IMG/VR virus record: IMGVR_UViG_3300029915_000003 | Length of the DNA stretch: 64,000 nucleotides | DNA from: a virus | Reading direction: 5' to 3' (one strand) | In this document: piece after piece, positions 1,762 through 51,483 of the stretch | Position numbering within the stretch: position 1 is the first letter of the stretch | How the letters are laid out: each line of letters starts with the position of its first letter | Position numbers and translations under genes: made by a program | The notes under the pieces: generated by a model | Databases searched by the model: none | What the model saw: the letters and a program-made list of their open reading frames with translations, nothing else | What the model was told of the DNA's origin: nothing

Positions 1762-3045
1762 ATGGCTACCGTAGATATATTCAACACCCAAACCCAAGAG
1801 ACTTTTGAACTAGAGGTCTCCAATTCGGAAGAGTTGGAGATCTATCTACGTAGAAATATTAAATTCCTTAACAATAATGTACCTTTTGGTAACTTAGCCA
1901 AATGTTTGCAACTAATAGAAGATGATGGTAATTATCTATTAGACTTCTCCAAAGCAGAAGAGTTGTTTGACTCAATTCCAACTCAAAACATACCAGAAGC
2001 CATAGAATCAGACCTAAACAGCCACGCCCTTAGCAATTTAGGTAAATCAGAGTCTAGCGTACTGGAAGAAGAGTACGGTATCAAACCAGATAAATGGGCC
2101 AAAGTCCTAGGTAATAATCTCAAACCATTTAACCCAAAATTAGTAGCACCAAAGGTTATAAGTCCTTGGAATCAGGACGGAATAACCTTCTCCAAAGCCA
2201 TCAGATCTGCGTTTGATGCAAATAAAGTACATTACGTACATTTAGGTGGGAAGCACAGTAATGGTAGCATGGTAGCGTTTGATCCATCTACCAAAATACG
2301 TTACCTATTAAAGCCAGGATTTGGAGAGTCTTCTCCTGCGGCTGGTATTAGGGAAACCCCCTACACTCAATCTCAACGAGAAACGGCCTTTTACCATGCA
2401 TCTGTTTCCATGGATTTAGGTAATTATTTACCTGAATGCCAAATGTTGTTGTTTGATGGCAAGGAAGTTGCTTGCATAAAAATGCTTCCGGACTACTTTG
2501 TAAATTACGTGGACTTCACTACTGAAGACCAGTTTTTAGGTAGAGAAGTTCTGGAAAACTATTTGGTTTCAGGAACCCTACATAAATGGGCTGTCATGGA
2601 TTACGTTCTCGGGAACGTAGATAGGCACAGCTCCAACCTAATGGTGGGTAGACCCAAAGGCAACAGCAGCGACGGGAATAAAGGCGTCACTGTTCGCCTA
2701 ATAGACCACGGTAGCACCTTGGCTGGTTTGGGTTTTGACCCAGCCAATGATCCTTCCAGCTATTTACCGTATTATTTACGTATGTGGAGTTCCATTTCCA
2801 AGTTCCAACGCTTGATCCCAAAAGACAGGTTTCACCAAATGCCCACAACTTCTTTGGAGGGTGAAAAGATTTTAAGAAACTGGTTCAAAGACCTTGATTT
2901 GGTTAAATTGGCATGGGTGTTAGAATCTTATGGAATAAACCCCCAACCCATGATTGCCCGTGCGACCCAAATACACCTAAATATGGCAAACGGAAGGCTG
3001 GATGAGGCAATAAACAAACTATGGGCTGGTTACGATAATCTTTAA
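1762..3045 (+). CDS. PI3K/PI4K/HipA-like kinase-fold protein
   Basis: YLLKP (ATP-binding Lys), RETAFY, DYVLGNVDRHSSNLM (catalytic loop), LIDHG (Mg-binding). Confidence 0.8.
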   Translation: MATVDIFNTQTQETFELEVSNSEELEIYLRRNIKFLNNNVPFGNLAKCLQLIEDDGNYLLDFSKAEELFDSIPTQNIPEAIESDLNSHALSNLGKSESSVLEEEYGIKPDKWAKVLGNNLKPFNPKLVAPKVISPWNQDGITFSKAIRSAFDANKVHYVHLGGKHSNGSMVAFDPSTKIRYLLKPGFGESSPAAGIRETPYTQSQRETAFYHASVSMDLGNYLPECQMLLFDGKEVACIKMLPDYFVNYVDFTTEDQFLGREVLENYLVSGTLHKWAVMDYVLGNVDRHSSNLMVGRPKGNSSDGNKGVTVRLIDHGSTLAGLGFDPANDPSSYLPYYLRMWSSISKFQRLIPKDRFHQMPTTSLEGEKILRNWFKDLDLVKLAWVLESYGINPQPMIARATQIHLNMANGRLDEAINKLWAGYDNL

Positions 3046-3048
3046 TAT

Positions 3049-3360
3049 ATGGAAATATCAGACAAACAAATCAAAGGCAAACCCAAAGTTGTAGGAAGTA
3101 CCGAAAATGGACCGGTACTGTCTATGACCACAAAGGGTGGATTGCATTTAATCCTAGGAATGAATAAGGGCGGCAAGACCGAAACTTTAGCTATGGGTTC
3201 GCATCCTGCACTTGCAAGGCATATAGCCTCCAAAAAAGCCGATATTACGTGGAATTCATTAGAAAAATCAGAAGCTAGGGATACCGAAACATTTAAAGAA
3301 CTAATCCCTAAATACGAAAAACTAACTGACGAAATTAGAGAATTAGAAAACAAGGAATAA
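3049..3360 (+). CDS. hypothetical, probable virion protein
   Basis: 103-aa ORF preceded by late motif; SLEKSE site. Confidence 0.6.
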   Translation: MEISDKQIKGKPKVVGSTENGPVLSMTTKGGLHLILGMNKGGKTETLAMGSHPALARHIASKKADITWNSLEKSEARDTETFKELIPKYEKLTDEIRELENKE

Positions 3361-4215
3361 ATGGCTCCCAAGAACACCATTACCACAACGCCTATGCCTT
3401 ATAGCGGGATAATGCCCGCTTTCAATCCTGACGATTTTGCGGCTTTCATTGATTCAAATGGAGTAGAGCTTATTCATTATAAGGCCATACCTTGTCCCGT
3501 AGGGCTTGAAGATGAACAAGATTCTGTTCACAAGAACCATGTACCCCATGCTGGATGCAGTAACGGTTACATATTCATAGAAGCTGGCTGTTTGGTCGCC
3601 ACCTTCAATAACGCCCCAAATTTATGGAACCTAGGTGATACCGGACTAGTTTCGGGTTCTACCTGTATGGTTACATTTCCTTTTACTTATACGGATGGAA
3701 TTACACCCGTAGTAATAGCCGTACAAGATAGATTTTATCTAAAAGATATACAATGCTATGTTACCTCCCAGCAAAGGTTCCAACGTGGCAACGGTACAAC
3801 TGATTTCTTACACTTTCCCCCAGAATACATAGAATATATCTTTGATTCCAAGGGTTTGCAATACTTGTCTACGGATTATAGCGTTACTCAGGGCTCTCTT
3901 CTTTGGGTAGGAAACAGACCTGCTGAAGGTACTATTTGTGCCATTAGGTATTTATACCGCCCTTTTTGGTATGCAGCGAGATTATTACACGAAATTCGCG
4001 TAGCCAGAACAGAAAATATGGTTACAGGTGAAAGAGGGCTTACTAGAATGCCTTATTCAGCCCTTTGTAATCGTGAGAACGTAGGTAGAAATGAATATAC
4101 TCAAATTAACCCAAATCAAATTGTTCCGCCAAGAGCTATTTTGCCACCCAACCAACGAAATAATTTTTTATCTGGTAAATCACCAAGCTCTATAAGTGAA
4201 ATAGAGGAAGAATAA
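3361..4215 (+). CDS. putative head-completion/neck protein
   Basis: CP..(H)..GCSNGY motif as seen in myophage neck proteins; position in the virion cluster. Confidence 0.5.
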   Translation: MAPKNTITTTPMPYSGIMPAFNPDDFAAFIDSNGVELIHYKAIPCPVGLEDEQDSVHKNHVPHAGCSNGYIFIEAGCLVATFNNAPNLWNLGDTGLVSGSTCMVTFPFTYTDGITPVVIAVQDRFYLKDIQCYVTSQQRFQRGNGTTDFLHFPPEYIEYIFDSKGLQYLSTDYSVTQGSLLWVGNRPAEGTICAIRYLYRPFWYAARLLHEIRVARTENMVTGERGLTRMPYSALCNRENVGRNEYTQINPNQIVPPRAILPPNQRNNFLSGKSPSSISEIEEE

Positions 4216-4216
4216 A

Positions 4217-4948
4217 ATGATAGTATATGGATTAGTTTATGCTCTATTGGATCCTTTTGGAAAAATTAGATATATAGGTCAAACATGCGATACAATAGAG
4301 CAGAGATTTAAAGAACACCTATTTCCTTCAAATCTTAAAAATTTAGATCACAAAACCAATTGGATAAAATCATTATTATCAAAAAACCAAAAACCTACGA
4401 TAAGATTGCTTCAAGATAATATTCCTGTAAAATTCATAGAAACCAAAGAAAAACAATGGGATATGACTATTATTGATACCACTGAAACAGAATGGATTCG
4501 TCTATATAAACTAATTGGCGCAAAATTAACCAATAGCACAAATGGAGGGGGAGGTCAGCATGGAAGAATCCCAAGTAAAGAAACTTTACGTAAAATGTCT
4601 GAATCTCATAAGGGTAAAAACAATGGACCCGTAGCTGCTGCTAATATATCAAAAGCCTTAACAGGAAAGAAGAGAGCCCCATTTACAAAAGAACACAAAA
4701 GGAATATAGCGATAGGAGCTACAGGTAAGCTTCAATCAGAAGAATCAAAATATAAAAAATCAGTTACCTTGAAAGCAAACCAAAAGAACACAGAACATCT
4801 ACGTAAGCTATCGGAAGCAAGGAGGGGTGTGCCGCAAAGTCCAGAATTAATAGCAAAAAGAGTGGCTTCCTGTAAACTAACTCTTGAAAGAAACAAAAAA
4901 AAGAAAATAGATGCAATAAATGCTATATTTTCTTTTTTAATGTCTTAA
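4217..4948 (+). CDS. GIY-YIG homing endonuclease with NUMOD3 repeats
   Basis: VYALLDP..IRYIGQT, R..EH, LTN.T.GG; C-terminal basic SKETLRKMSESHKG-type repeats. Confidence 0.88.
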   Translation: MIVYGLVYALLDPFGKIRYIGQTCDTIEQRFKEHLFPSNLKNLDHKTNWIKSLLSKNQKPTIRLLQDNIPVKFIETKEKQWDMTIIDTTETEWIRLYKLIGAKLTNSTNGGGGQHGRIPSKETLRKMSESHKGKNNGPVAAANISKALTGKKRAPFTKEHKRNIAIGATGKLQSEESKYKKSVTLKANQKNTEHLRKLSEARRGVPQSPELIAKRVASCKLTLERNKKKKIDAINAIFSFLMS

Positions 4949-4969
4949 ACCGCAATTTTACCACTAAAT

Positions 4970-5797
4970 ATGAAAGATTCTCAATTTCTACAACTTTTCA
5001 TTGGTAAAGAAGGAGCCCAAGCCCTTTCTAAGTCTGCGCGCGCAATCCCCTCTATAAATACCGTTATAGCGCCAACAGTACTTTCCACCTGGATCAGCTT
5101 AGTTGAGAACTTCGATGGGGAGGTCCTGGGTAAATCCATTAAATTCCAAAAGAACGAAGATGGGACATATAATGGTTCAGTTCAATTTTCAAAAGGGATG
5201 TCTATAGATTTTACCCTAAAGGACATTTTTTACGTGGTATCAGCTATTGCTGTAGCCCATGACTTAACAGGCGATATTGGAAATATCAAAAAAACAGACT
5301 TAACTGCTTTAAATAAGACTATTTCTGCCTTAGTAACACATACTCTTAATAAATCCCAAATGGTAGGAATAAATGCTGGTTTGGCGGCAAAACCACTAGC
5401 TGCAATGACTCCTACTCCTCCTAGTCCACCATCAATGAAACCCTTGGGAGCTAAGGCTCAAATACCAGGGATGCCCAAAGCGGATCCTTCCTTGTTGGCC
5501 AGTCAAGGGGTACCCCCCAATGAAATTCATTCCCCCAGTAGCTCTACGGGAACTAGTAGCTTGGGTACCATGAAATTACCTTCCTTGAAGTTGAAGAAGT
5601 CAGAAATAGTAGACAAATGTGGGATATGTGCCACCAAGCATTTCAAGGAAGACGTACTCAAGGGATGTCTCTGTATTCGGGGATTGCTCAAAACCACAAC
5701 CGTCGAACTCAAAGAAGACACCTATGTATTGGTAAATACTAATAATTTAGGTTTAAGTGATTTTGGTTTTATAGCAGACGCCTTGAAGGGTTTTTAA
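4970..5797 (+). CDS. hypothetical virion-cluster protein with C-terminal CxxC..CxC
   Basis: 275-aa ORF, late motif upstream, several LxKS sites. Confidence 0.6.
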   Translation: MKDSQFLQLFIGKEGAQALSKSARAIPSINTVIAPTVLSTWISLVENFDGEVLGKSIKFQKNEDGTYNGSVQFSKGMSIDFTLKDIFYVVSAIAVAHDLTGDIGNIKKTDLTALNKTISALVTHTLNKSQMVGINAGLAAKPLAAMTPTPPSPPSMKPLGAKAQIPGMPKADPSLLASQGVPPNEIHSPSSSTGTSSLGTMKLPSLKLKKSEIVDKCGICATKHFKEDVLKGCLCIRGLLKTTTVELKEDTYVLVNTNNLGLSDFGFIADALKGF

Positions 5798-5799
5798 TA

Positions 5800-6321
5800 A
5801 TGGAAAAATCTAAAGAAAAATCAACCAAAGGTCCCCATAAGTGGATGGACAAATATGTCTTAGTAGACAAAGACGACTCAGCCTCTCTCGATAGGGACAG
5901 TGCTGTTGGTGAATTTCACAACAAACTCCCCAGAGAGGTAGCCGAAAAGGAAGCTTACCATAAATACACCCAAAAGGTCCATCAAGACGGGGCAATACAC
6001 CACTTAAAGGGAATGAAGGCTGCTGAAGCTACTGGAAATAAAGAAGCCAAAGAGTCCCATGGGTTAAAACTATATCTACATCTTAAGGCTTTGGGTGGAG
6101 ATCAAACAGAATTAGCATCTAAAATCAAGGCTTTGGCGGATGAAGACACATCTACCGGTACTTATAAGTTTCAAAGCCATTCTGGGGATGATCTTTTACA
6201 AGACTGCCTATCAAAAACAGAAACAAAAGACTATTTGCGTGAATTACTTAAAAATATGACCAAAAAACTTATCCAGAACGTCTTACAAGACAACAATCTT
6301 AATCATAATGAAATCAAATAA
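5800..6321 (+). CDS. hypothetical protein
   Basis: 173-aa ORF tightly coupled to its neighbours. Confidence 0.6.
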   Translation: MEKSKEKSTKGPHKWMDKYVLVDKDDSASLDRDSAVGEFHNKLPREVAEKEAYHKYTQKVHQDGAIHHLKGMKAAEATGNKEAKESHGLKLYLHLKALGGDQTELASKIKALADEDTSTGTYKFQSHSGDDLLQDCLSKTETKDYLRELLKNMTKKLIQNVLQDNNLNHNEIK

Positions 6322-7516
6322 AAAATACAAATGTGATATTTTAGACGGAACAAGGATCGGAAGATTGACTGTAGTCGAAAAATTAATAGAAAAGACTAAA
6401 AATGGTTCTTTGAAATATTTATGTAAATGTGATTGTGGCAATCAAAAAATCATAAAAGGAGCCAACCTTTATTCAACAAAAACAATTAAGGCGACACAAA
6501 GTTGTGGTTGTTTACAAAGGGAATCAATCAAATTAATATTTAAAGACTTAGAAATTATAGAAATTGGTAGCAGGGTGGGTCAAGTAACTATATTAAAAGA
6601 ACTAGAGATTCGCAATAAGAATGGAAGTAAATACTTTTTATGTAAATGCGATTGCGGTAAAGAGATAAAGACAACAGCGACAAGACTTAGAATCAAACAT
6701 AAAAGTTCTGCGAAATATTCAACCATAGAAAGTTGTGGATGTTTAAGAAGCGAACGACGGTTATCTGGCGGCAAAAATCCGCCTGGGTTAAATATCATTA
6801 ACAAGCTTGTTAGTGATTATATCACTGGGGCGAAACATAGAGGATATAGCAATACGCTCACCTGGGATGAGCATGTGTATTTATTTAAACAAAACTGTTA
6901 TTATTGTAATTTACCTCCATCGAATATTTTAAAAGCATATAATTCAAGTTATATTTATTCCGGTATTGATAGAATCGATAATACTATTGGATATACTATA
7001 GATAATGTTGTCTCATCTTGCAAGAAATGTAATATAGCAAAGTTCTCTGGCACACAGTTGAATTTCATTAAATGGATTAAGAGTTTATACGAATTTAAAG
7101 AAACAACGAACATTTTAATTGATTTCGATCCAAAATTCAGAGCATTGAATCAATTAATCAGTAAATACAAAACTTCAGCAAAACAAAGGAAACTAAAATA
7201 TGATTTAGACAAAGAAACAGCAATTTTCCTTTTCAAAGGGGCATGTATTTATTGTAAAAAATCGCCATACAGAATATTCAAGATAAGAGCAAAGAAAGAA
7301 TATTTATATGTCTATAACGGTATAGATAGAGTTGATAACCGTCAAGGATATATTAAGGAAAATGTTGTTTCTTGCTGCACACAATGTAATTATAGTAAAA
7401 GGGATTTGTCAGTACAAGAATTTAAAGATTGGACATTGAGAGCATACAACCATATGAAATCTAATGGTATTTTTGATAAAATAAAGCCCAAAGACAATAT
7501 TTACAAGAACTTTTGA
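6308..7516 (+). CDS. HNH homing endonuclease with duplicated modules
   Basis: Two GRLTV..CKCDCG..SCGC modules and two CxxC..GIDR.DN..GY...NVV..C..CN HNH-type modules. Confidence 0.85.
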   Translation: MKSNKKYKCDILDGTRIGRLTVVEKLIEKTKNGSLKYLCKCDCGNQKIIKGANLYSTKTIKATQSCGCLQRESIKLIFKDLEIIEIGSRVGQVTILKELEIRNKNGSKYFLCKCDCGKEIKTTATRLRIKHKSSAKYSTIESCGCLRSERRLSGGKNPPGLNIINKLVSDYITGAKHRGYSNTLTWDEHVYLFKQNCYYCNLPPSNILKAYNSSYIYSGIDRIDNTIGYTIDNVVSSCKKCNIAKFSGTQLNFIKWIKSLYEFKETTNILIDFDPKFRALNQLISKYKTSAKQRKLKYDLDKETAIFLFKGACIYCKKSPYRIFKIRAKKEYLYVYNGIDRVDNRQGYIKENVVSCCTQCNYSKRDLSVQEFKDWTLRAYNHMKSNGIFDKIKPKDNIYKNF

Positions 7517-7592
7517 AAGAAATGGTCGGAAATCTGGCCAAAGCAATAAAGAAGTAAAGCAATAATCTTATTTACAGGAGATTTAAACAATT

Positions 7593-8264
7593 ATGGCAAA
7601 TAACATTCGAAGTGCTACAGCGTCAATGGTTAATACGGGCAGCTACGACGGTCTATGCGTACTAAGCAGTGCAGACGCTTTTGACGTTGGGGCTACAGTG
7701 AGTATTACCTCAACGGTATACCCCCAACCCAACAATCTAGTAATTCTGGCTAAAAATGGAAGCATCCTCACCCTTGGTCTTCCCAATGGTGGTGGTCTAG
7801 CCAATTTAAGCCAATACTTCTGCCCTCCGATTGACACCGTTACGGTCCAGCAATCAGCCGGTCCTGGTCCTGGCAGCGGTGGCTACAACATTTTCCCTGG
7901 TACTCCGGGTCAAAACTTTTACGGTAATTTCGGTCTAACCCTTGGACCGGACGTTGGAAGTTCAGCTGTTGGTTCAACCTATTGGTCTCTAGCGGCTCTT
8001 GCCGATGCGACTACGGGTGATGCTCTTATTTGGGTTGCGGCCACTGCTGGTTATAACGCTCCGGCTTGGGGTGCGTCTCAAGTAATTCAAGCTAGCATGC
8101 AACGAGCCTCGGGCGGTAACGTATATGTTGCCCTAAATAGCGGAACGACCAATAGCGGTCAGACCCCTACCGGAACTACTACTTTTACCGGTACAGACGG
8201 TATCACTTGGCAATTCTTAGCCACTGCGACACCCGCAACCTTCACTCAAATCGGTATCAAATAA
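7593..8264 (+). CDS. virion decoration/fibre-like protein with CBM-like motif
   Basis: Strong SD (AGGAG), late motif, G/T/S-rich, W..S..Y.A..SGTT..PT....DG.TW; followed by a terminator. Confidence 0.55.
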   Translation: MANNIRSATASMVNTGSYDGLCVLSSADAFDVGATVSITSTVYPQPNNLVILAKNGSILTLGLPNGGGLANLSQYFCPPIDTVTVQQSAGPGPGSGGYNIFPGTPGQNFYGNFGLTLGPDVGSSAVGSTYWSLAALADATTGDALIWVAATAGYNAPAWGASQVIQASMQRASGGNVYVALNSGTTNSGQTPTGTTTFTGTDGITWQFLATATPATFTQIGIK

Positions 8265-8290
8265 AATTTAATTAAGGTAAATCTCCTGTG

Positions 8291-8324
8291 AAAGGGTTCT
8301 GGGTTTAAACACCTAGAACCTTTT
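8291..8324 (+). terminator. rho-independent terminator
   Basis: AAAGGGTTCTGGGT-TTAAAC-ACCTAGAACCTTTT hairpin followed by T-rich tract. Confidence 0.75.
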
Positions 8325-8350
8325 CTATTTGGGGAATAATCTTTAAGCAT

Positions 8351-9229
8351 ATGACTTTCCCCAACCAAGTTTCCAGTACTACCACGGATGTAGGTACCCC
8401 TTTTGGCCAGATAAACGTGGGTAATTCTAATGGCTTTACACCTGGAGCGACTGTATTGATAAGTTCTCAGGTATTTCCTACTCCCTATCAATTAAAAATA
8501 CTATCCATACAAGGGAATCAATTAAACCTAGTAACCCTACAAGACACCATACCTGATTTAAGCCAATTTGGTACCCTACCTACAGATACCACCACTATCA
8601 CCCAAATAACTACTCCGATAGGATGGTATACCCTTTTAGATGGTAATCCCGGTTCTTCATATTATGGTTATTTTAACAAAGTTACTGGTCCCGATACTGG
8701 CAACGCCAATGAATGGGATCAGTTTTGGTGCTTAAATGCATCCAATAATGGTGATTCAATAATTTGGATTTGTTCTTCTCCAGGTGTTTGCGCTCCTCAA
8801 TGGGCTGAAGGCCAATCCATCCAAATAAACATGCAACGCAGTAATGCTGGTCAAAACTACGTTGCTACTTCTAGTGGTACTACTACTGGGGGAAATGCCC
8901 CTACTGGTACAGCCACAGAAACAGGAACTGATGGAATTACATGGATTTATGTAAATAGTTTACCTGTTGCTACATTTAACAGTATATTATTGGCAAGTCC
9001 TGGTGGAAGTCCTCCAACCTTTGTAAACAATGAGATACCAACAGGTTCAATAGATGGTATTAACGGTACCTTTACTTTACTACACATACCTCTTGATGGC
9101 ATTAATGTGTATTTATCGGGATTAAGAGTCCCCCCTGTTAATTATACTTTAATTGGCAATGTTTTTACTTTCGTATTAGGGCAAATTCCACCAGAAGGAT
9201 CTTATCTTTATGTCGATTACTCATATTAA
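8351..9229 (+). CDS. virion protein, paralog of 7593..8264 with an extra C-terminal domain
   Basis: Colinear similarity (GATV.I.S.V.P.P..L.IL, GPD.G, GD..IW, AP.W, MQR, GTDGITW); C-terminal E.P.G.IDG.N..FTL motif. Confidence 0.6.
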   Translation: MTFPNQVSSTTTDVGTPFGQINVGNSNGFTPGATVLISSQVFPTPYQLKILSIQGNQLNLVTLQDTIPDLSQFGTLPTDTTTITQITTPIGWYTLLDGNPGSSYYGYFNKVTGPDTGNANEWDQFWCLNASNNGDSIIWICSSPGVCAPQWAEGQSIQINMQRSNAGQNYVATSSGTTTGGNAPTGTATETGTDGITWIYVNSLPVATFNSILLASPGGSPPTFVNNEIPTGSIDGINGTFTLLHIPLDGINVYLSGLRVPPVNYTLIGNVFTFVLGQIPPEGSYLYVDYSY

Positions 9230-10457
9230 GTTTTCTCGTATAACAGGTATTTTAGGTGTAATTGGTCTTATAGCTATAGGGGCCGTTGGTTTTAGGTTTA
9301 AGGACGCTATTGCTGCGGCTACTGGTATTAATACCCAACAAGCTATAACCGCTGCTCCTGTTGCTATGAATATGTCCGGTTTGGATGCAGGAGAAGGGGT
9401 TAGTGTAGCTTTTGCCAAGGCCGATCACGTACACCCTATATCCGGTATATTGTCTCCAATTAACGGAGGGACTGGTCTAAGTGTGGATTCTGGCACCTTC
9501 ATAATGACCAACGCTTTGGATGGAGGACAAATTAATGTACAAGCATACATAACTGGTAAAACAGATTATACCCAACAAAGTACCACAATGACCGTAATAG
9601 GTGGTCTTGGTTCAAATGACGGTATGGACATTTTCGGTGGAGACTCAACAGATGGAGGTCAATCTGGTTTCGGCCTAGTCATTTGGGCTGGTAACTCCAA
9701 TGGTGGCTCCGACTTAAACGCAGACGGAGGGGTCGGAGGTAGCGCCTTTTTGGCCTTCGGAACAGGAGAAGCTCAAGGACTTACAGGTATTGGTGGTCCC
9801 AGGAACGGATGGGGACTTTTAGGATATGGTGGTTGCCAAGGAGAATTCTACTATTGTGGAGCTATTGCTTCTGAATACGTAGGAGATGGAGTTGAAGGTT
9901 ATGGTTATGGGGGTAACGGTTATTACGGTGTAAGAGGTATTGGAGGTACCCTAACAGATGGAGGTGGAACCACTACAGGAGTAAGAGGTGATGGTTCTCA
10001 GGCTGGAGGTAATGGAGGTCAGTTCTACGCTCACGGTGGTAATTATGCTGGTATTATAACTCAAGGTGGTCCAGATGGTGGTCCAGGAGCATATATAATT
10101 GGTGGAACCGATGGTGGAGCAGCTTTAGTGTTGTCTCCAAATTCTGGTCCAGCAATTGCAATGCTCCCAACAGCCCCTCCAATGAGTCCAACCACAAATG
10201 GTTATATTTATCAAGATAATGTATTAAATTCATTTATGGTAGGAGATGGCACCTATTCCTACCGTATGCCTAAATGCAAAGTTCACGCTCTTAATGGTTC
10301 GGGTATTTACACCCAAAGTGTTGAAACAGGATCTACCGGATGCTCCGTTACGGACCAAGATAACGCTATTGCTGGTAAATGCAAAATAGCAGCAACCACT
10401 CTTACCGTAACAATACCCGGTGGAGCTTCAGACAATATAAACCTCTGTTACCAATAA
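9210..10457 (+). CDS. Gly-rich fibre-like protein with N-terminal signal/TM segment
   Basis: Hydrophobic N-terminus, AKADHVHP tail-fibre-type motif, many xDGG motifs. Confidence 0.55.
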   Translation: MSITHIKFSRITGILGVIGLIAIGAVGFRFKDAIAAATGINTQQAITAAPVAMNMSGLDAGEGVSVAFAKADHVHPISGILSPINGGTGLSVDSGTFIMTNALDGGQINVQAYITGKTDYTQQSTTMTVIGGLGSNDGMDIFGGDSTDGGQSGFGLVIWAGNSNGGSDLNADGGVGGSAFLAFGTGEAQGLTGIGGPRNGWGLLGYGGCQGEFYYCGAIASEYVGDGVEGYGYGGNGYYGVRGIGGTLTDGGGTTTGVRGDGSQAGGNGGQFYAHGGNYAGIITQGGPDGGPGAYIIGGTDGGAALVLSPNSGPAIAMLPTAPPMSPTTNGYIYQDNVLNSFMVGDGTYSYRMPKCKVHALNGSGIYTQSVETGSTGCSVTDQDNAIAGKCKIAATTLTVTIPGGASDNINLCYQ

Positions 10458-10479
10458 TAGACCCCAATTTTAAGGGAAT

Positions 10480-12597
10480 ATGGCTAATGACACTTTAGAG
10501 AAAAATTGGAAGAGTGCCCTATTGGGTGGAGTTTTAGGAGCTGGACTTTTAGCTAACAACAGTATAGGTCACGAACCAGCCCTTCCCAAACCAATAGTTC
10601 AACCAAAGGTGGACTCACCTTGGTCTACTACCGGTTTGCATCCAGATTTATTGCCAATAGCCTTCCTAGAAAGTTCCGGGGGTAAATTTACCCAGCACCA
10701 ACCCCACTCGGGGGGTCCATACTACACGGCCTTTGGATCTGTGGGATTAAAACCCGTAAGTGCTCATGATTATTACCTAAAAAACAAACAAGTACAAGCT
10801 AAATATCCAGATCTTTCCGATAAGGATAAGTTCACTCAAAAACTAAAGACAGATCCAAAATTCTACAACGAAATGGCTTCAGACCTATGGACTCAAAACG
10901 CCAATAAGTTCAAAAACTCTTTACCTCATGCTGTTTATGCATGGCGACACGGACGCAAGGCGGCTATTGATGCAGGTAAAGAAACAGTACAAAATGATCC
11001 TTACGTTAAATCATATTTAGGATACCAATCTAAACAAAAAGACATGATACCTAAAGTTAAAGCCGTTAAGGCTCCAGAACACCCCAAAGGGATGACTTGT
11101 TCCGATGGTCAATGCTCGGTACCAAGTCATTACGATCCTGTAGCAGCCGCAAAATACGAAGAAAGCCTTGGCTTAAACAAAAGTCTAACAGAGGGTATGC
11201 TGTTTGATATATATATAAGCTGGGCGTTAGAAGAAGTTGAGGTGGAAGCTCAACTCTATGCCAAAGAAGGGAACACCCTCGCCTTACGTAATTTAGAAGA
11301 CAAAATTAAAGACGCCAATCAGTTATGGGAATCATTTTGCCTGAGGACCATGGGCGAAGTGATTTGTGTCGGAGGAATATCAGATGTGGGTAGAATCTTG
11401 TTGCACCAAGACTCTTTAGATGAATTACCGACAATTAAAAGCGAGATAGAGGCTATATTCGACTCTCCCGTAAGTATAGGAGCTGGTAGGGATTTAAAAG
11501 AATCCGACCAAGCCCTGTATATTTGCGCTAAAGAAACCCCTGGTAAAATAGTATTCTACACCCAAGAAATAGCATATAAAATCAAATTAATATCCGATTC
11601 TATGGCTAAATCCGAAAATGCCCCTGCGGCTCAAGCCAAGGAAGACGCTCAAGCTAAAAAAAGGAATTGGAAACAAGCCTTCTCTGCTCATGTCACTACC
11701 GCTGATCCATCTAAAAATTCCAATTGGCACAAAACGGGCTCTTTTAGAGGCAAGACTCATGCTGGTTTTATTCATGCCAAAGCCGGTGGGGATGTTCCAA
11801 GCGTACACAAGCCAAAGGCACCTGAACATACACCAGAAAGAGTTGCTGGACTCCGGAAGCCGAAGGATATTTTGAATGATTTAACCAACCTATCTGCCAA
11901 GGGTTCCGGTAAACCAAAAGAAGACATAGAAGGAATAAAAAAGAAGATAGTCAAACTCCTAGAAAACCTTAAATCAGAAGAACTAGAACAATTAAAAATA
12001 GCAAATCCAGACGCTTACGCTACGATTCTAAAGCTAATAGGAGCCATTACGTCCATCGGAAGGGCTCTTCCTGAAGCTCCAAGGGAGTCCAATGAAGACT
12101 GGGTACCACCACCCGCTCCAGCTCAAGTCGCCAAAACCGAAGATGTTAACATAGTACAGGCTGCATTCCTAGATAACACCAGCAAGGTTGTATATGGTAC
12201 TGGTTCTTGTCATGATATAAACTACTTACCTACCGAATACAACGAAAAAACCTATACGGAAGGTTTCCTTACAGATGAAAATGAATTCGTATCCAGAGAA
12301 GAAGCTGGGGGATTAAGATCTGAGGACGTATTCAAAACAAATGATTCCAAAGAGTTCCTTGCTAATTTGAATAAGGGGGGTATAAAGCTGCCATCAATTA
12401 AGGTGAAAAGGTTTATTCGTCCGAGCTATCCCATTGGAACAGAAAAACAAAACGGACTAGGAGTTCTAGAAATAAAGGTGCAACACTTAGGTCCGCAAGG
12501 CGAGCCAGGGGAAATAGGCTGGAACAAGATCGGCTCTGGCAAGATAATGGGTTCAGATGGCCACCCTATAAGTTCTCAAAATCAAAGAGCTAAATAA
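10480..12597 (+). CDS. multidomain internal virion protein: lytic transglycosylase-like + degenerate mCpol-like + small GFLT..FVSREEA domain
   Basis: IAFLESSGG..AFG..GL..AVYAW..G..YV (SLT/lysozyme-like); GEVICVGG..VSIGAG..L.E...AL..AK..GK (mCpol-like). Confidence 0.6.
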   Translation: MANDTLEKNWKSALLGGVLGAGLLANNSIGHEPALPKPIVQPKVDSPWSTTGLHPDLLPIAFLESSGGKFTQHQPHSGGPYYTAFGSVGLKPVSAHDYYLKNKQVQAKYPDLSDKDKFTQKLKTDPKFYNEMASDLWTQNANKFKNSLPHAVYAWRHGRKAAIDAGKETVQNDPYVKSYLGYQSKQKDMIPKVKAVKAPEHPKGMTCSDGQCSVPSHYDPVAAAKYEESLGLNKSLTEGMLFDIYISWALEEVEVEAQLYAKEGNTLALRNLEDKIKDANQLWESFCLRTMGEVICVGGISDVGRILLHQDSLDELPTIKSEIEAIFDSPVSIGAGRDLKESDQALYICAKETPGKIVFYTQEIAYKIKLISDSMAKSENAPAAQAKEDAQAKKRNWKQAFSAHVTTADPSKNSNWHKTGSFRGKTHAGFIHAKAGGDVPSVHKPKAPEHTPERVAGLRKPKDILNDLTNLSAKGSGKPKEDIEGIKKKIVKLLENLKSEELEQLKIANPDAYATILKLIGAITSIGRALPEAPRESNEDWVPPPAPAQVAKTEDVNIVQAAFLDNTSKVVYGTGSCHDINYLPTEYNEKTYTEGFLTDENEFVSREEAGGLRSEDVFKTNDSKEFLANLNKGGIKLPSIKVKRFIRPSYPIGTEKQNGLGVLEIKVQHLGPQGEPGEIGWNKIGSGKIMGSDGHPISSQNQRAK

Positions 12598-13340
12598 TGT
12601 TTACAGTAAAACTCAAAGCTCCAGACTTTGATAAGATAGCCAAAGATCTAGGAAGTGAGATAGACGAGCGTATCGATGGACTTGTATCAACTATGGCTCA
12701 AAAAGCATTTGATCATATAGTTGATATAGCCCAAGAGGAATTAAAGACTCTAAAAGATAAATATATAGAAGGTCTAGAAATAGAACAATTGACTCCAACC
12801 TCTTGGTTGATATCTATGACCGATAAATCAGGATGGATAGAAACTGGTCACGAACCAGGATTCCAAATGTTACCGGGCTTTTTAAACAGTCCTAAAGCAA
12901 AAACAGCCAAAGACGGTTCTAAATACCTAATCATACCAATGGAACATGCTACCGAAACTAGTCATTCCACCCAAAAAGGTCAAGAAACCAAAGACCTATT
13001 GAAGAGAGAACTCAGTCAAAGAGGAGTTCCTTTTACCGGTATAGAAAATGGCAACAACGGAAAACCAAAACTAGGAACTTTGCACAATTTCAACTTTGGA
13101 GGTCGCCAGGGGCTCACTGGTATTCCATATCTTCAAGGTGTGAGGATTAGTCAAAAACAAACCAATCAGGGCGTTAAACGGTCTATAATGACCTGGAGGA
13201 CCGCTTCTAGCAAGCAAAACCCATCGGAATATTGGGTTCTAGAGAATGGAACCAAAGGATTGGGTGCTTTTGACAAAACTGTGGATTGGATAGAACAAGA
13301 ATGGGAAAAATTGGTATTGGGAGAATTTGGTACCAGTTAG
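12597..13340 (+). CDS. putative neck/head-tail connector protein
   Basis: WIETG, KYLIIP, WRTAS..W..G motifs; position before the tail completion gene. Confidence 0.5.
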   Translation: MFTVKLKAPDFDKIAKDLGSEIDERIDGLVSTMAQKAFDHIVDIAQEELKTLKDKYIEGLEIEQLTPTSWLISMTDKSGWIETGHEPGFQMLPGFLNSPKAKTAKDGSKYLIIPMEHATETSHSTQKGQETKDLLKRELSQRGVPFTGIENGNNGKPKLGTLHNFNFGGRQGLTGIPYLQGVRISQKQTNQGVKRSIMTWRTASSKQNPSEYWVLENGTKGLGAFDKTVDWIEQEWEKLVLGEFGTS

Positions 13341-13672
13341 TCTTTAGGGGTATTGTACTTAAAACCCACCATACTCAATAAGTCACTAACATCCCTAATA
13401 CTTAAGGCATCGCTAGGATTGTCTGAGTCAAATTCGGAAATTATTGAGTTAATTAGCTTAATAACCTTATTAACAGCTTTTTGCTTGAAAACCATACGAT
13501 AATGAGTAGAACATGGTCGCCCTAAGGCCACTTGTACTTCTATGGATTTCCTAAGTAAATTACCCCGCTGCACTGGCTCTCTGTAAGCCTTAAGAAAATC
13601 CTTAAAACAAGACAAAATATAAGCTTCCTTAAACTCTGGTGGCTTTAACTGTTCGGGCATATCTAATAACAT
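13337..13672 (-). CDS. hypothetical protein inserted antisense in the virion operon
   Basis: Fills the 13340-13694 gap; own sigma70-like promoter upstream; ATG at 13672. Confidence 0.6.
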   Translation of the reverse strand: MLLDMPEQLKPPEFKEAYILSCFKDFLKAYREPVQRGNLLRKSIEVQVALGRPCSTHYRMVFKQKAVNKVIKLINSIISEFDSDNPSDALSIRDVSDLLSMVGFKYNTPKD

Positions 13673-13680
13673 TGCTAGCA

Positions 13681-13710
13681 ATCTTAGTCTACAATGACCA
13701 CAAATGTCAA
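13681..13710 (-). promoter_or_regulatory. sigma70-like promoter TTGACA-18-TAAGAT
   Basis: Perfect -35 at 13710-13705; -10 at 13686-13681; 8 nt before ATG 13672. Confidence 0.55.
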
Positions 13711-14707
13711 TACAGTTTCGGTAGATTCGCCTCCTTTGGCGACACCTCAATTGCTATCCAACACAGAAACCAGGGGTATTGTAGATACTTCTTGGGTATT
13801 GCGCACCGCTATTATGGCTGGTTTGGAAGATATACGCCAAAATCCAGAACTAATCAATTATGCGCTTTCCAATCTTTTCTTAATAGACCCTATAACCAAT
13901 AAAGACATAAGAACCACTATTATAAATACTGCTAAGGACTGGATTCTTAACAGTAAAATCTCAGTGGTGCTTTACCCCAAATTAGACGAAGTGGAATTTC
14001 CTTGTGTAACTATTAATATACTGGATTCTGTTGAAGTCGAAAACCAATTAGGAGACATCCACTACAAACCGTCCCAAGAAGGGAATACAGTAGATCCGTA
14101 CCTATTGGGACCAATCACCACCTCTGCCTATAATGTAGATACCGGTGAAATCACTCTACCCGCCAGTGCTGGCTCTATATACAGTACAGAAAGAATGGCT
14201 GTAATTGGTACGGACGGAAAAGAAATACCCATAGTCAAATCTTGGTATGGAAGCAGTATTTTCATTCCTCCTAATACAAATCCGTCCCTAGTTAATATCA
14301 TAAGTGTAGGAACCGCCTCCCCTAACGCTAGGACGAGGTTGGAGTCTGCTAGATTCCTAGAGAAATTTACCATTGGATGCTTTGCTCAAGGCGAACCGTC
14401 TTATACTATTTATCTCAATAGCATAATTATGTTTGTTTTGTTAAGATATCGAGAAAATCTACTAGAAGCAAGAGGTTACGAACGTACCACCGTAAGTAAT
14501 GGAGCTTTAACCAGCTTTTCTCAATTTATAGAAGGCAAGGAAAACGTATTTGGCCGAAATATCAATATAAGTGGATATACTAATGTAGTTTGGCCTAAGT
14601 ATACCTCGATCGTTCTTAATAGTGTTGTGACTCAAGTTGTGGCTCAAGTAGTTGGAGAAACCCCATCCAATCCGGTGCCGGGGAATATCTTGTGGACTTC
14701 AAAATAA
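13694..14707 (+). CDS. putative tail completion/terminator protein
   Basis: FPCVTINI..S.E motif, similar to tail terminators; upstream of sheath. Confidence 0.5.
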   Translation: MTTNVNTVSVDSPPLATPQLLSNTETRGIVDTSWVLRTAIMAGLEDIRQNPELINYALSNLFLIDPITNKDIRTTIINTAKDWILNSKISVVLYPKLDEVEFPCVTINILDSVEVENQLGDIHYKPSQEGNTVDPYLLGPITTSAYNVDTGEITLPASAGSIYSTERMAVIGTDGKEIPIVKSWYGSSIFIPPNTNPSLVNIISVGTASPNARTRLESARFLEKFTIGCFAQGEPSYTIYLNSIIMFVLLRYRENLLEARGYERTTVSNGALTSFSQFIEGKENVFGRNINISGYTNVVWPKYTSIVLNSVVTQVVAQVVGETPSNPVPGNILWTSK

Positions 14708-14754
14708 AGCATTTTTTGGCCAAACAAAATTACCGGAATCTTAATTTTAAACAG

Positions 14755-15663
14755 ATGGACAAGATAAGATACCATATCTATATATTAAAACATCCTATTA
14801 CTAATGAAATTAGATACGTAGGACAAACGAAAAATACTCTCTCCAACAGACTATATGATCATTTATATGAAGCAAGGAAAAGAAAAAATCTAACATACAA
14901 AAATAATTGGGTGTTTTCATTGCTGCAAAAAGAATTAAAACCAAAAATAGAAATGTTAGATTATGCTTGGGGGATAGAAGAGGCAAATCAAATAGAAAAA
15001 ACATATATTAAAAGATTCAAAGAAATGGGAAAAAGATTAACCAATTCAACCACAGGAGGAGAGGGGCATGTACCAATTCCATTAACAGAAGAACAAAAAG
15101 ATAAGTATCGCAAACAAGTTATAGAATTAAATACAGGGAAAATTTACAAAAGCCAAACACATGCCGCTAAAGAATTGGGAGTTCTACCTTCAAGTATATC
15201 CGCCATATGCAAGGGAAAGCATGCTTCTATTCATGGTTATCGATTTCAATACGGGAACACGCCGGTCGATTACAAGAACCCACATAAAGCATTGAAAAGA
15301 CCAATAATTGAAGTAAAAAGTGGAATTAAATACAACAATACAAAGGAAGCTGCCGAAACACTAAAGTTAGACAAAAGCCATATATCTGCTGTTTTAAGAG
15401 GAGATCGTATTCAAACGGGTGGTTGTCAATTTAAATACGCAGACGACTCGTCCGTATTTGTATTAAGAAATAGGAAATTCAATAACAAAAAGATCATAGA
15501 GACAACCACAAATACAATTTATAACAGTATCAAAGAAGCGGCTTTAAAAAATAACCTTAAGCCATGTTCCCTGTCACAAGCAATTAACGGAAAAATCAAA
15601 AAGCTAAGATGTGGTCTTGTGTTTAAGTTTTTAATAGAAACACAACCAAACCGTAATATTTAA
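14755..15663 (+). CDS. GIY-YIG homing endonuclease with three NUMOD1/IENR1-type repeats
   Basis: IYILKHP..IRYVGQT, LTNSTTGGEG; 3x K.IIE...G..Y.S..EAA..L; start 14755 follows late motif. Confidence 0.88.
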   Translation: MDKIRYHIYILKHPITNEIRYVGQTKNTLSNRLYDHLYEARKRKNLTYKNNWVFSLLQKELKPKIEMLDYAWGIEEANQIEKTYIKRFKEMGKRLTNSTTGGEGHVPIPLTEEQKDKYRKQVIELNTGKIYKSQTHAAKELGVLPSSISAICKGKHASIHGYRFQYGNTPVDYKNPHKALKRPIIEVKSGIKYNNTKEAAETLKLDKSHISAVLRGDRIQTGGCQFKYADDSSVFVLRNRKFNNKKIIETTTNTIYNSIKEAALKNNLKPCSLSQAINGKIKKLRCGLVFKFLIETQPNRNI

Positions 15664-15669
15664 GGGTAT

Positions 15670-18069
15670 ATGTTCTTTAAATGGCGGCAGAATGATACAG
15701 CCAATATAGCTGGGGAGCCCACCCTTCACAGTACCGTTCCCCTAGGAACGAATGGGTCTAGTCATAGTGAATATGTTATCATGCGTTCACCTAAGACCCA
15801 AGGCTATACTTTAGGTCATTTCTTTGGGCATGATCCAAAGCACGAATTACATATTTTAGGTAATAATCACAAAGACATACCTTCTGCTCAAACAGCGGCC
15901 GTAGAAGATCATAAGCTAAATATAGCCAATCCAAACCGTTACGACAAACCGGTACAAGGTGAGCTTTTTCATAAGGCTGAAGCTAAAGACAAAAAGGAAG
16001 CCCCGAAGAAGAAGGCTCCATCTAAAAAGAACAAAGAAGAATCCAAACCGAAGACTTCTAAGCCTAAGGCTAAAAAAGAAGCCGAAAAAGAAACCAAGGC
16101 CAAGGAAGAAGCTCAAAAAGAGATAATCAAACCTAAAGAGGAAGCCGCTACTGAAGCGGCTCCAAAGGCAAAAGCAACGCCTAAAACCAAGAAACCGGCT
16201 GGGGAAAAGAAACCCAAAGCCAAACAAGCCTTTTCTTGGTTAAACGAATCCAAAGGTAAATCTCCTGCGGCTTTAAAGGTTAAAACCAAAGGTCCAGCCT
16301 CTAAAAATGTAGTAGTGGACCCAAACAAAGCTCCTCCAAAACCAACCATACAAAATACACCTACCTCTTCTACTCCCAATTGGATGGAAAGTCCAAACGA
16401 TCCTTTCCTTCAGGCTCCCACTGGAAAGAACGTCCCTCCTCGTCCGCAAGTAGCTAAACCGGCACCAGCCGATACTACTCCCGAATGGATGATGTCTCCT
16501 GACTCTAAAGGGCAACTGCCAGCTAAAAAACCAGTTGAGCCATGGTTTAAATCACCAGATCCAAAAGACAAAAGCGCCCCAACTCCTTTACAACCACGAA
16601 GGGTATCACCCTCTAGCTTAAGAGTCAATCCAGCTACAGATCCAAACAGTAAACCTCCGGCCTGGATGGAATCACCGGAAGATCCTTGGGCTATGTCGGC
16701 TCCAACAGGACAAGTCCCAATCAAACACCCCGCAGTTACTCCTTCTGCTCCCCAGACCGGAGAAGAGTGGCTTAAACCTCCATATGCGTTACCTCCTCCC
16801 CCTCCGGCCGATCATGACGCTCCAGACGTAGCTCCTGTTGCACCTCAAAGCACTCCATCTGTAGAACAAAACCCAGTAGAGGTGGAGGGGTATGATTATT
16901 CCCATTTATTAAATCCAAAACACAAAGAAAACGGTGTTGATTTAAGAGTATTCCATGAACCGGGTGGACATAAGGCCGTAATAAGTCATCATGGCAAGCC
17001 AGTAAGCTACATGAAGGCCAAATTCAATCCAGAAGATGGCACAACTACCGCTGGAGCCATGAAACTAGATCCAAGATATGCTGGTTCTGGACATGACAAG
17101 ATCATGCAACAAGCTGTTTTTACTCATGGTTTGAGTAGACCAAAAACACCCCATACTGATATTAAACCATTTAAAATCAAACCAGGGGCTACTTTTGATT
17201 TAAATACAAATAATTATCAAACTCCTTCATCTAATAAAAAATTAATGAGTCAACAAGCTGAGCCTGCATATTCTGAGGATTATGTAGAGAAAAAAGAATC
17301 ATTAAATAAATCCCAATCTTATAGTGAAGCAATTACCAATCAGGAGAACGCCTTGGAAGATCCTAAAGTAAATATCAACGAAATCAAGCAGGCTCTATAT
17401 AAAGCAGCCAAAGAAGAAATAGCTAATTACACCGTACAGCTAGAAAAACTGCGTAAGGCTGCTATGGATGGCGGGGCTATGGCCCCTGGAATGATGGCGG
17501 ATCCTGGAACTATGAATATGAATGAAAAATCCATGGAAAAGGTAGCCCCTCCTGGATTTGACGAAGCAACAATGCATAAGCTAAAAGCCAAATATGGGGT
17601 AGAGTCAGCTTTTAAAATTGCTTGGGCTGCTCACAACAAGAAAGACAATAAAAAGGATATGAGCAAGGATGAAGACTCTGTGTCCGGCTCAACCTTTCCC
17701 AAGGTAACTGGTATTGATGCGATCGATGCGGATACCGGTGGTGGTGAAGCTCCTGGAAAATCCAAGGAAATTAGTGCTTCTGGAGCGGGAGGATCTGTTA
17801 AGCCCTCAGTTCTTAAATCAGCCAAAGGTTTAATCAAAAACATCAAGAAGGGGATGGGTGGTGGACTAAAACCCCCAATGGCCCACGCTGGAAGTCCAAC
17901 TATTCCCTCCATGGGTGGTGGAATGGGCAAAGATGAAAAATCTATGGGTAAAACCCAAGAACCATCCGGCACAATTCCTGAAAAAACAATATCAGCTAAT
18001 GGCGAAAAGTCATGGAGCAAGGGAGCGGTAATTAAGAATTTAGCTTCTGCTCCAATTAAATCTGAATAA
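15670..18069 (+). CDS. large low-complexity probable internal head protein with W-x-x-SP repeats and a GNAT-like segment
   Basis: K/E/P-rich; WMESP/WMMSP/WFKSP repeats; LDPRYAGSG; many xxK|S/A/D sites. Confidence 0.55.
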   Translation: MFFKWRQNDTANIAGEPTLHSTVPLGTNGSSHSEYVIMRSPKTQGYTLGHFFGHDPKHELHILGNNHKDIPSAQTAAVEDHKLNIANPNRYDKPVQGELFHKAEAKDKKEAPKKKAPSKKNKEESKPKTSKPKAKKEAEKETKAKEEAQKEIIKPKEEAATEAAPKAKATPKTKKPAGEKKPKAKQAFSWLNESKGKSPAALKVKTKGPASKNVVVDPNKAPPKPTIQNTPTSSTPNWMESPNDPFLQAPTGKNVPPRPQVAKPAPADTTPEWMMSPDSKGQLPAKKPVEPWFKSPDPKDKSAPTPLQPRRVSPSSLRVNPATDPNSKPPAWMESPEDPWAMSAPTGQVPIKHPAVTPSAPQTGEEWLKPPYALPPPPPADHDAPDVAPVAPQSTPSVEQNPVEVEGYDYSHLLNPKHKENGVDLRVFHEPGGHKAVISHHGKPVSYMKAKFNPEDGTTTAGAMKLDPRYAGSGHDKIMQQAVFTHGLSRPKTPHTDIKPFKIKPGATFDLNTNNYQTPSSNKKLMSQQAEPAYSEDYVEKKESLNKSQSYSEAITNQENALEDPKVNINEIKQALYKAAKEEIANYTVQLEKLRKAAMDGGAMAPGMMADPGTMNMNEKSMEKVAPPGFDEATMHKLKAKYGVESAFKIAWAAHNKKDNKKDMSKDEDSVSGSTFPKVTGIDAIDADTGGGEAPGKSKEISASGAGGSVKPSVLKSAKGLIKNIKKGMGGGLKPPMAHAGSPTIPSMGGGMGKDEKSMGKTQEPSGTIPEKTISANGEKSWSKGAVIKNLASAPIKSE

Positions 18070-23369: not shown

Positions 23370-23711
23370 ATGAATGTATTCACTCCGGTTCCATTTGGAC
23401 CAACATACAACGTATCTACCTTAACTCCATTGATAGGTAATTTTCTTATTAGTGGCTATGATACAGTTATAATTACAATCCAAAACCTAGATTCAACTCA
23501 TACGGTAACTCTAGTGGTAGATCCTAGTACTTCTGGGGTCGTATTCAATACAACCCAGCGCCAGCAAAGTTATGCATTGCCGTTAGAGGAAGGGTCGGTG
23601 ACTATCCAAACTTCTGCATATCAATATATAAGAGTTTCAGCTCAAACAGACGGTCCATCTTACCCTACCGTTCAAGTAAAGTTTCAAATTAATGGTAGTA
23701 AGGATATATAA
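23370..23711 (+). CDS. small beta-sandwich virion-type protein
   Basis: 113 aa beta-rich, ends YIRV..Q. Confidence 0.5.
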   Translation: MNVFTPVPFGPTYNVSTLTPLIGNFLISGYDTVIITIQNLDSTHTVTLVVDPSTSGVVFNTTQRQQSYALPLEEGSVTIQTSAYQYIRVSAQTDGPSYPTVQVKFQINGSKDI

Positions 23712-26785: not shown

Positions 26786-26786
26786 T

Positions 26787-40588: not shown

Positions 40589-40618
40589 GCACCAATTTTA
40601 TCATCAGAACCCCAAATT

Positions 40619-46315: not shown

Positions 46316-46318
46316 TAT

Positions 46319-49077: not shown

Positions 49078-49150
49078 AAGGATAGACTATGAAAAAACAA
49101 CAACTTGAAAATCCAAAAATGGCTAAAAAAGAACAAAAAGGCGGTATATA

Positions 49151-51460: not shown

Positions 51461-51483
51461 CGGAAAGGTAATTTTACTAAATT

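Follow-up and report, generated by a model that had tools for sequence, protein, structure and literature searches.

A lysine-specific cleavage code predicted for the split cargo proteins, the capsid protein and the head protease of an Mx1-like virus

The stretch of DNA analyzed here (hereafter, the window) comprises 64,000 nucleotides of the virus record IMGVR_UViG_3300029915_000003 from IMG/VR and harbors, between positions 1762 and 18069, six open reading frames (ORFs), named after their first nucleotide (1762, 3049, 4970, 5800, 10480, and 15670), in which a short motif, a hydrophobic residue, any residue and a Lys followed by a small residue, recurs; in the following, a vertical bar marks the presumed scissile bond. 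The recurrent motif is real and not an artefact of amino acid composition, and it behaves like a protease code that capsid protein, scaffold, and head protease of the virus have in common. We consider it probable that the head protease cuts the cargo encoded in the window at L-x-K borders into enzymes that stay in the head and leave it with the DNA. The window would, quite plausibly, hold a split-up version of the polyvalent-protein cargo of an Mx1-like myovirus. Polyvalent proteins, as described by Iyer, Burroughs, Anand, de Souza, and Aravind 2017 (PMC5512222), are late phage proteins combining several domains (kinase, GNAT, ART, nuclease, and peptidoglycan-cleaving ones), for which packaging in the capsid and delivery together with the DNA are predicted.

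Positions 214–64000 of the window make up the initial 63.8 kb of a viral contig from IMG/VR (125,960 bp, with an estimated completeness of 78%); positions 1–213 fall outside the contig record. The sole cultured relative is Myxococcus phage Mx1 (40% identity for the sheath and 55% for the capsid protein), which has the same kinase-to-sheath gene order. The cargo ORFs are placed between homologues of capsid-module genes and the sheath gene, in synteny with Mx1, that is, among the late (virion) genes of a portal-terminase phage. Probing phage records with the whole window by megablast did not retrieve any match, and locus searches with a single protein, either the product of ORF 10480 or the sheath, did not retrieve any related locus; the eight related loci used here were obtained from IMG/VR by an alignment-based scan with Mx1.

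The first-pass annotation had listed examples of the motif [LMFV]xK[SATDG] in the six ORFs, and all of them are present in the respective translations. The number expected by chance was obtained by shuffling the residues within each ORF. Pooled over five of the six ORFs (ORF 3049 was missing from the gene list used for this test), the motif was observed 28 times against 15.4 expected (z 3.3), whereas all the other ORFs of the 126-kb genome hold 154 occurrences against 143 (z 0.9); hence, the enrichment persists after correction for composition. ORF 4970 is the only one clearly enriched alone, with nine occurrences against 2.4 (z 4.8). The narrower L-x-K-S occurs eight times in the six named ORFs (1.7 expected, z 5.0) and four times in five prohead proteins (0.9 expected), compared to 13 times in the other 33.5 k residues (12.3 expected, z 0.2). 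The observed and expected numbers for [LIVMF]xK[ST][ED] are seven and 1.0 in the named ORFs, five and 0.6 in the prohead proteins, and five and 8.8 elsewhere. The motif as originally written is, however, too loose: 5.5% of the Lys residues in unrelated ORFs match the similar [LIVMF]xK[SAG], and because the share in the cargo (7.7%) is just 1.4 times as high, the broad motif is a poor predictor of single sites.

The first-pass annotation had also remarked that the motif is not conspicuous in the sheath and baseplate proteins. This is true but uninformative, since these proteins are nearly Lys-free (0.3–2.8% Lys), and per Lys the sheath is not depleted (four observed vs. 1.7 expected). Tail, baseplate, and fibre ORFs (23711–30362, 38054–51882, and 7593–10457) are nearly without Lys and Arg; the ORF at 26787–30362 (1191 residues) contains 0.3% Lys and 0.4% Arg. 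Other ORFs reach 6–15% Lys, so that the Lys content is very uneven between the ORFs of this genome. Selection against Lys specifically in tail proteins was considered and dropped, Arg being equally depleted.

The capsid protein gene (genome positions 101104–102495, minus strand), the adjoining gene of the scaffold candidate (102536–103438, minus strand), and the gene of an assemblin-fold head protease of 642 residues (105402–107330, plus strand) lie outside the window. The first-pass annotation had pointed to the capsid precursor as a place where L-x-K|S might recur, and the motif was indeed found there, in the form LTK|A. The capsid protein has 1416 homologues, uncultured, and shares 23–26% identity with the capsid proteins of SPO1, CP-51, and Listeria phage LMTA-34 (Herelleviridae). 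In each of the 120 homologues listed, out of 1416, a variable leader of 11–14 residues closes with L-x-K, and the highly conserved block ALEAG.YN.AP..L.QG.AL..EDLS comes next, giving L-x-K|A; the Mx1 capsid protein has LRK|AMEAG there, with the Lys at residue 15. In a HMMER alignment, K12|A13 matches K24|S25 of the Staphylococcus phage capsid protein, whose precursor sequence of 463 residues is given in PDB entry 5lii and whose chains 9row, 9rox, and 9roz comprise 439 residues starting exactly at S25; the start of a deposited chain was taken as indirect evidence of cleavage. At the aligned position, SPO1 gp6.1 (9vel) has LNK|ALEAG. No N-terminal sequencing of the A511, phage K, or SPO1 capsid proteins was found in the literature searched. 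On the basis of these alignments, L-x-K|A is predicted to be the maturation site of the capsid protein. The mature capsid protein avoids the motif, with 0.13 sites per protein against 1.6 expected and none in 87% of 119 homologues.

The Ala/Pro/Glu-rich protein encoded next to the capsid gene is likely the scaffold. Eight of its 22 Lys residues lie in the motif (ITK|SE, LKK|SQ, AMK|SE, LSK|SE, and others; z 4.3), and its Mx1 homologue harbors LAK|SE, ALK|SE, and LKK|SD.

Residues 20–185 of the head protease are modelled by AlphaFold with a predicted local distance difference test (pLDDT) score above 90, and the top Foldseek matches of this domain are all herpesvirus proteases (E 1.5e-4, probability 1.0, TM about 0.4). 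None of 16 homologues deviates at H60, S138 (in GLSIEG), or the P1 Lys K194. H60 and S138, the putative catalytic residues, are matched by NFEH and GFSIEG in the U35 protease annotated in Listeria phage LMTA-34 (BLASTP, E 1e-8), and in the same alignment ELGK|SLEAGN faces TFMK|SWTTGH. The protease domain is followed by a disordered linker with LGK|S and then by a copy, about 30 residues long, of the capsid N-terminus; in Mx1, LMTA-34, and 13 out of 15 further homologues, the copy likewise stands directly after hydrophobic-x-K|. Several homologues carry PI3/PI4-kinase or GGDEF domains at the C-terminal end. The kinase nature of the C-terminal part of the protease was assigned from PF00454 matches in relatives and from the DRxxxN...IDH consensus; a BLASTP comparison of this part with the kinase of ORF 1762 was not significant.

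In the window, the most complex cargo gene is ORF 10480 (10480–12597, plus strand), which codes for a protein of 705 residues made up of a leader (MANDTLEK|), a hydrophobic helix, a lytic transglycosylase (SLT-like) module, a minimal CRISPR polymerase (mCpol)-like domain, a helical module, and two small beta modules; SLT-like and mCpol-like domains are thus joined to three further modules in one polypeptide, with at least two unrelated effector-type domains. Its sites K8, K234, K377, K552, and K632 (nucleotides 10501, 11179, 11608, 12133, and 12373) are either conserved or placed at ORF or module starts in homologues. The leader and helix, starting MANDTLEK|NWKS, correspond to an internal ELSK|SWKS of a 1479-residue Mx1 protein. 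Five relatives have separate ORFs whose first residues fall at K234, and homologues retain K377, K552, and K632. In the AlphaFold model these five Lys residues, together with K619, fall in, or at the edge of, low-confidence linkers, even though the comparison of motif Lys with other Lys in low-pLDDT segments is weak alone (Fisher p 0.10). The placement of sites at domain borders in ORF 10480, noted in the first-pass annotation, is therefore borne out by both the model and the homologues.

The SLT-like module (10615–11043, plus strand; residues 46–188, pLDDT above 90) matches Pseudomonas aeruginosa Slt (5ohu) weakly in Foldseek (155 columns, E 8e-3, root-mean-square deviation (rmsd) 4.7 Å), and E64, in LESSGG, is nearly invariant; the Pfam SLT family was not matched. 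The mCpol-like module (11200–11619, plus strand; residues 241–380), of the minimal CRISPR polymerase/GGDEF fold, forms the N-terminus of a separate ORF in five relatives and has GGISD where some relatives have GGDE. Its top Foldseek matches are the OptS mCpol structures of Panoptes, 9pd0 and 9mnr (target TM-score 0.80–0.83, rmsd 2.0–2.5 Å, E 1e-4). OptS, the structurally closest protein, is the sensor-synthase of the Panoptes defence system, and a phage-borne copy could act on cyclic-nucleotide immunity. Together with the PI3/PI4-kinase-like and GNAT-like domains described below, these modules correspond to those guessed in the first-pass annotation, the matches coming from Pfam and Foldseek and that of the SLT being weak.

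A phmmer search with ORF 10480 against 1.8 billion representatives retrieved 592 proteins at E ≤ 0.001, and in the best 150 of them the transglycosylase module occupies any position in chains of 114–2336 residues. All the a-x-b-c patterns were then counted in the non-transglycosylase parts (116 k residues) of 149 representatives sharing at most 50% identity. LxKS was observed 150 times against 43.7 expected (z 15.8), ranking third of all patterns and first among those with large counts, the two above it having only 21–22 occurrences each; LxKA (z 11), LxKM, and LxKG come after it. Against a background density of 0.83 sites per 100 residues, the nearest site lies 30–40 residues before the SLT core in 68 out of 127 proteins; on the far side of the core, it falls within the next 30 residues in 105 out of 114. 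The motif is depleted inside the SLT core (24 vs. 81 expected) and enriched in the two 45-residue flanks (90 vs. 28.8 and 125 vs. 28.9 expected). L-x-K-M too is enriched in the 149 representatives (58 vs. 16 expected); its Met may be what is left of the start codons of modules formerly encoded by ORFs of their own.

A Pfam census of 30 proteins with the SLT module returned NUDIX (22), GNAT (13), PI3/PI4-kinase (12), PBECR5 (4), ART-PolyVal (2), and ParB_N (1) domains, as well as pentapeptide repeats. Since the homologues of the SLT module carry these families, they are polyvalent proteins as defined by Iyer et al. 2017; none of the ART-PolyVal, PBECR, or ParB-like signature domains was found by Pfam in the window's own ORFs. 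In relatives, ORFs of 1488–1622 residues join SLT and kinase modules. Moreover, one representative (P0154) consists of a protease domain, LEK|G, the anchor with the transglycosylase, LQK|D, and a copy of the capsid N-arm. Beyond residue 520 or so, this 800-residue sequence is Arg/Ala-rich and resembles a frameshifted or mis-called tail. The cargo had been described at first as polyproteins; this holds for the relatives, where modules form part of giant polyvalent proteins and even of the protease, whereas here they are mostly separate ORFs.

The first of these separate ORFs, 1762 (1762–3045, plus strand; 427 residues), has a variable N-terminal part, from residue 1 to about 145, with the candidate site LGK|SES (K95, nucleotides 2044–2046), followed by a PI3/PI4-kinase-like domain (PF00454, E 1.1e-8, 35.8 bits against a curated cut-off of 27.1). 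The kinase loops DRHxxN (DRHSSN) and IDHG are visible and conserved in Mx1. The same kinase represents the C-terminal module of the 1488–1622-residue ORFs of three relatives (L006, L007, and L013), and in nine out of nine relatives a site of the type [LV]-x-[KR]|[SGAKN] lies about 25 residues before the kinase domain. ORF 3049 (3049–3360, plus strand) codes for a small, conserved, Lys-rich protein of 103 residues with the site LEK|SE (K73, nucleotides 3265–3267). Homologues are present in nine out of nine related loci, and the L-x-K|[SN]-[ED] column is invariant in ten out of ten sequences, the tail beyond it being variable.

The product of ORF 4970 (4970–5797, plus strand; 275 residues) shows an N-domain, a Pro-rich linker, and a Cys4 C-domain, with sites at K21, K61, K116, K210, and K241 (nucleotides 5030, 5150, 5315, 5597, and 5690). 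Five of its ten conserved Lys columns lie in the motif (eight homologues), and in L006, L007, and L008 a GNAT-like insert stands between sites of this type; the protein is probably a head core or carrier protein. ORF 5800 (5800–6321, plus strand; 173 residues) comprises a conserved N-domain, the site LSK|TE (K139, nucleotides 6214–6216), and a variable tail; according to the alignment of nine homologues, the conserved domain ends at an L-x-K|A/T site, and four relatives have ELAK|A-type sites followed by unrelated extensions. Several of the sites originally listed, among them FSK|AEE in ORF 1762 and MEK|SK at the N-terminus of ORF 5800, lack conservation and are probably chance matches.

As for the neighbouring genes, an ORF at 540–1619, directly upstream of the cargo block, strongly matches the PHROG 'dehydrogenase' family phrog_9582 (E 5e-82). 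Three homing-endonuclease-like ORFs with HNH or endonuclease VII PHROG matches (4217–4948, 6308–7516, and 14692–15663) are interspersed among the cargo and neck genes, and these may have had a role in splitting a polyvalent protein into separate ORFs.

In principle, we can depict the following scenario for the function of this system. The kinase, the membrane-anchored transglycosylase, the mCpol-like and GNAT-like modules, and the small core proteins (3049, 4970, and 5800) would be built into the prohead. The assemblin-fold serine protease would then cut after Lys in hydrophobic-x-Lys|Ser/Ala/Gly(-Glu) in every prohead protein; with the same code it would remove 12 residues from the capsid protein, shred the scaffold, and free itself from its own C-terminal cargo, and the freed modules would remain in the head and exit with the DNA. 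We infer the cutting, its attribution to the head protease, the packaging (from the fusions and the shared motifs), and the injection (from precedent).

Several points weigh against this scenario. No proteomic, N-terminal, or structural data were found for this phage or for Mx1. ORFs 1762, 3049, 5800, 10480, and 15670 are not individually enriched in [LMFV]xK[SATDG] (each z < 1.4), and the homologue sets are related by descent, so that their z-scores and counts overstate independence. At the aligned pre-kinase position, ORF 1762 has NLK|PF, with a Pro at P1', its LGK|SES lying farther upstream. The head protease did not match any Pfam (E ≤ 0.01) or PHROGs (E ≤ 0.001) family, and a hidden Markov model of the capsid N-arm did not reveal any copy, or other loading signal, in the ORFs of the window. 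The transglycosylase, with its hydrophobic anchor, could equally ride in the tail. Lastly, ORF 15670 (15670–18069, plus strand; 799 residues) is an uncertain member of the cargo. It codes for a Lys/Pro/Ala-rich disordered protein with a GNAT-like 'YDYSHLL' module (residues 405–496, approximately) and a P-x-W-[MLF]-x-[SP]-P repeat that occurs five times (at residues 238, 273, 292, 332, and 367). Its motif count is not above chance (eight observed vs. 5.3 expected), a word-indexed search did not retrieve any homologue of similar length, and only the GNAT-like module matches parts of the polyproteins of relatives; its role as a cargo polyprotein is thus uncertain and finds no support.

Different explanations of the motif can also be depicted. 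It might be a true cutting signal at module borders that is read by another enzyme or at another time, for example by a ClpP-like protease, by a host protease after injection, or by self-cleavage. A ClpP-family ORF is indeed encoded in the window (31195–31980, minus strand), a further point against processing by the head protease, and Iyer et al. (PMC5512222) propose that polyvalent proteins are cut by embedded peptidases, possibly after delivery. We nevertheless regard this as decidedly unlikely. The ClpP-like ORF was rejected as the processing enzyme, having no homologue in Mx1, where the motif is kept, and the same motif is found at the predicted maturation site of the capsid protein, in the scaffold candidate, and in the linker of the head protease, and is avoided in the mature shell, which points to an enzyme working inside the prohead. 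The ClpP-like gene (PF00574, E 5e-12) lies on the opposite strand within the tail module, adjoining a crotonase-like ORF (30716–31198, plus strand), and its best phage matches are mycobacteriophage ClpP-like proteins. It is also quite unlikely, in our opinion, that cutting in the prohead serves to degrade and expel core or scaffold-like assembly parts instead of releasing injected enzymes. ORF 4970, with at least five conserved sites along its length, does resemble the scaffold candidate, and no recognisable enzyme domain was detected in ORFs 3049, 4970, and 5800; for these three the explanation may hold, and they may be core parts that are degraded instead of delivered. However, the depletion of the motif inside the SLT domain and its confinement to the flanks fit the release of intact modules, and it is not obvious what kinase, NUDIX, GNAT, ART, and nuclease domains would do in assembly.

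A non-proteolytic role would make the motif a conserved linker, used for docking to scaffold or portal, for capping a helix ahead of a membrane segment, or as a junction that eases the swapping of modules. In agreement with this, only three to four residues are conserved, and the Lys ahead of the SLT module, immediately followed by a hydrophobic helix, resembles the positive end of a signal anchor. Yet, the motif recurs behind the SLT module, in a place that lacks a hydrophobic segment. The scaffold candidate is full of it, mature head proteins avoid it, and it lines up with the point at which the deposited mature chain of a solved relative begins; furthermore, a signal of three to four codons is too short to guide recombination. 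We therefore judge this reading very improbable. The remaining one, that Lys-rich proteins simply contain many hydrophobic-x-K-small matches by chance, could draw on the background frequency in unrelated ORFs and on the named ORFs that are not individually enriched; it is refuted by the shuffle tests, by the conservation of sites at fixed positions, and by the contrast between flanks and core in the 149 distant homologues, and has hardly any probability left.

Beyond processing by the head protease, a more far-reaching and doubtful possibility is that this enzyme acts as loading vehicle and scissors at once: docked in the prohead by its mimic of the capsid N-arm, the protease would bring along its fused cargo, and a universal L-x-K|S code would allow any enzyme module to be exchanged, taken into the head, released, and injected. 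If true, this would be a natural programmable protein-delivery system, whose payload includes an mCpol look-alike of the Panoptes sensor; this look-alike could supply host immunity with decoy cyclic nucleotides during the opening seconds of infection. Should the code itself be real, one could predict from sequence which mature products arise from hundreds of giant phage proteins that lack annotation (for one module, at least 592 representative clusters), polyvalent effector proteins would be linked with protease-driven head maturation, and a simple rule would be usable for loading foreign proteins into a phage head. Since Mx1 is cultivable and carries the same motifs, the prediction is directly testable.

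Both polyvalent proteins, with their likely delivery from the capsid, and the (Glu-specific) processing of ejection proteins by prohead proteases have already been published; with processed head cargo and polyvalent proteins on firm ground, current ideas would not be overturned. What is new is the Lys-specific code common to capsid, scaffold, protease, and cargo borders, the link from protease to cargo through the copy of the capsid N-arm, and the split-gene state with retained leaders.

Among the known systems, HK97 resembles the present one in that an assemblin-fold serine protease (gp4) is packed in the prohead. The HK97 capsid protein gp5 is cut after Lys, at K103|S104. Unlike here, a 102-residue scaffold-like delta domain is removed, and there are no cargo proteins. 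The Herelleviridae (SPO1 gp6.1, Staphylococcus phages K/812, and Listeria phages A511/LMTA-34) share a homologous capsid protein with the same block, K|(A/S)-x-x-x-G...P...AL..E, and likewise a U35/assemblin-type protease followed by a copy of the capsid N-terminal block. However, their proteases, of about 260 residues, carry no cargo, and the one head-module locus inspected did not contain polyvalent cargo genes. Maturation of A511 Cps reportedly takes place at a Lys-Ser bond (Loessner and Scherer 1995).

The proteases of the T4/phiKZ/SPN3US type differ from the one described here in lineage and specificity, being Glu-specific members of the T4 gp21 lineage. The motif of the T4 prohead protease is L/I-x-E. 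In T4, phiKZ, 201phi2-1, and SPN3US, a single short motif is cut by the prohead protease in the capsid protein, in the portal, in abundant internal head proteins, and in the protease itself; for the SPN3US enzyme this motif is A-X-E, with cleavage after Glu (PMC10052503). In phages of the SPN3US type, propeptides are cut at several sites, and the mature pieces remain in the head and presumably enter the cell (PMC10052503). Cleavage there mostly removes N-terminal propeptides and was shown by mass spectrometry, whereas here it would separate strings of swappable enzymes and is inferred from the sequence.

A close parallel for the cargo is represented by the polyvalent proteins themselves, and the homologues of the window modules carry their signature domains ART-PolyVal and PBECR5. 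In PMC5512222, their processing is mostly assigned to embedded zincin-like peptidases; rare assemblin-like peptidase domains are also noted there and suggested to process polyvalent proteins during assembly, and term searches of the same text retrieved neither linkers nor a recurrent cleavage motif. The system described here differs in two respects: an L-x-K|S/A/G code shared with the capsid protein and the scaffold would mark every module border, and in this genome the polyvalent protein is distributed over separate ORFs, which retain short leaders with the motif at their end.

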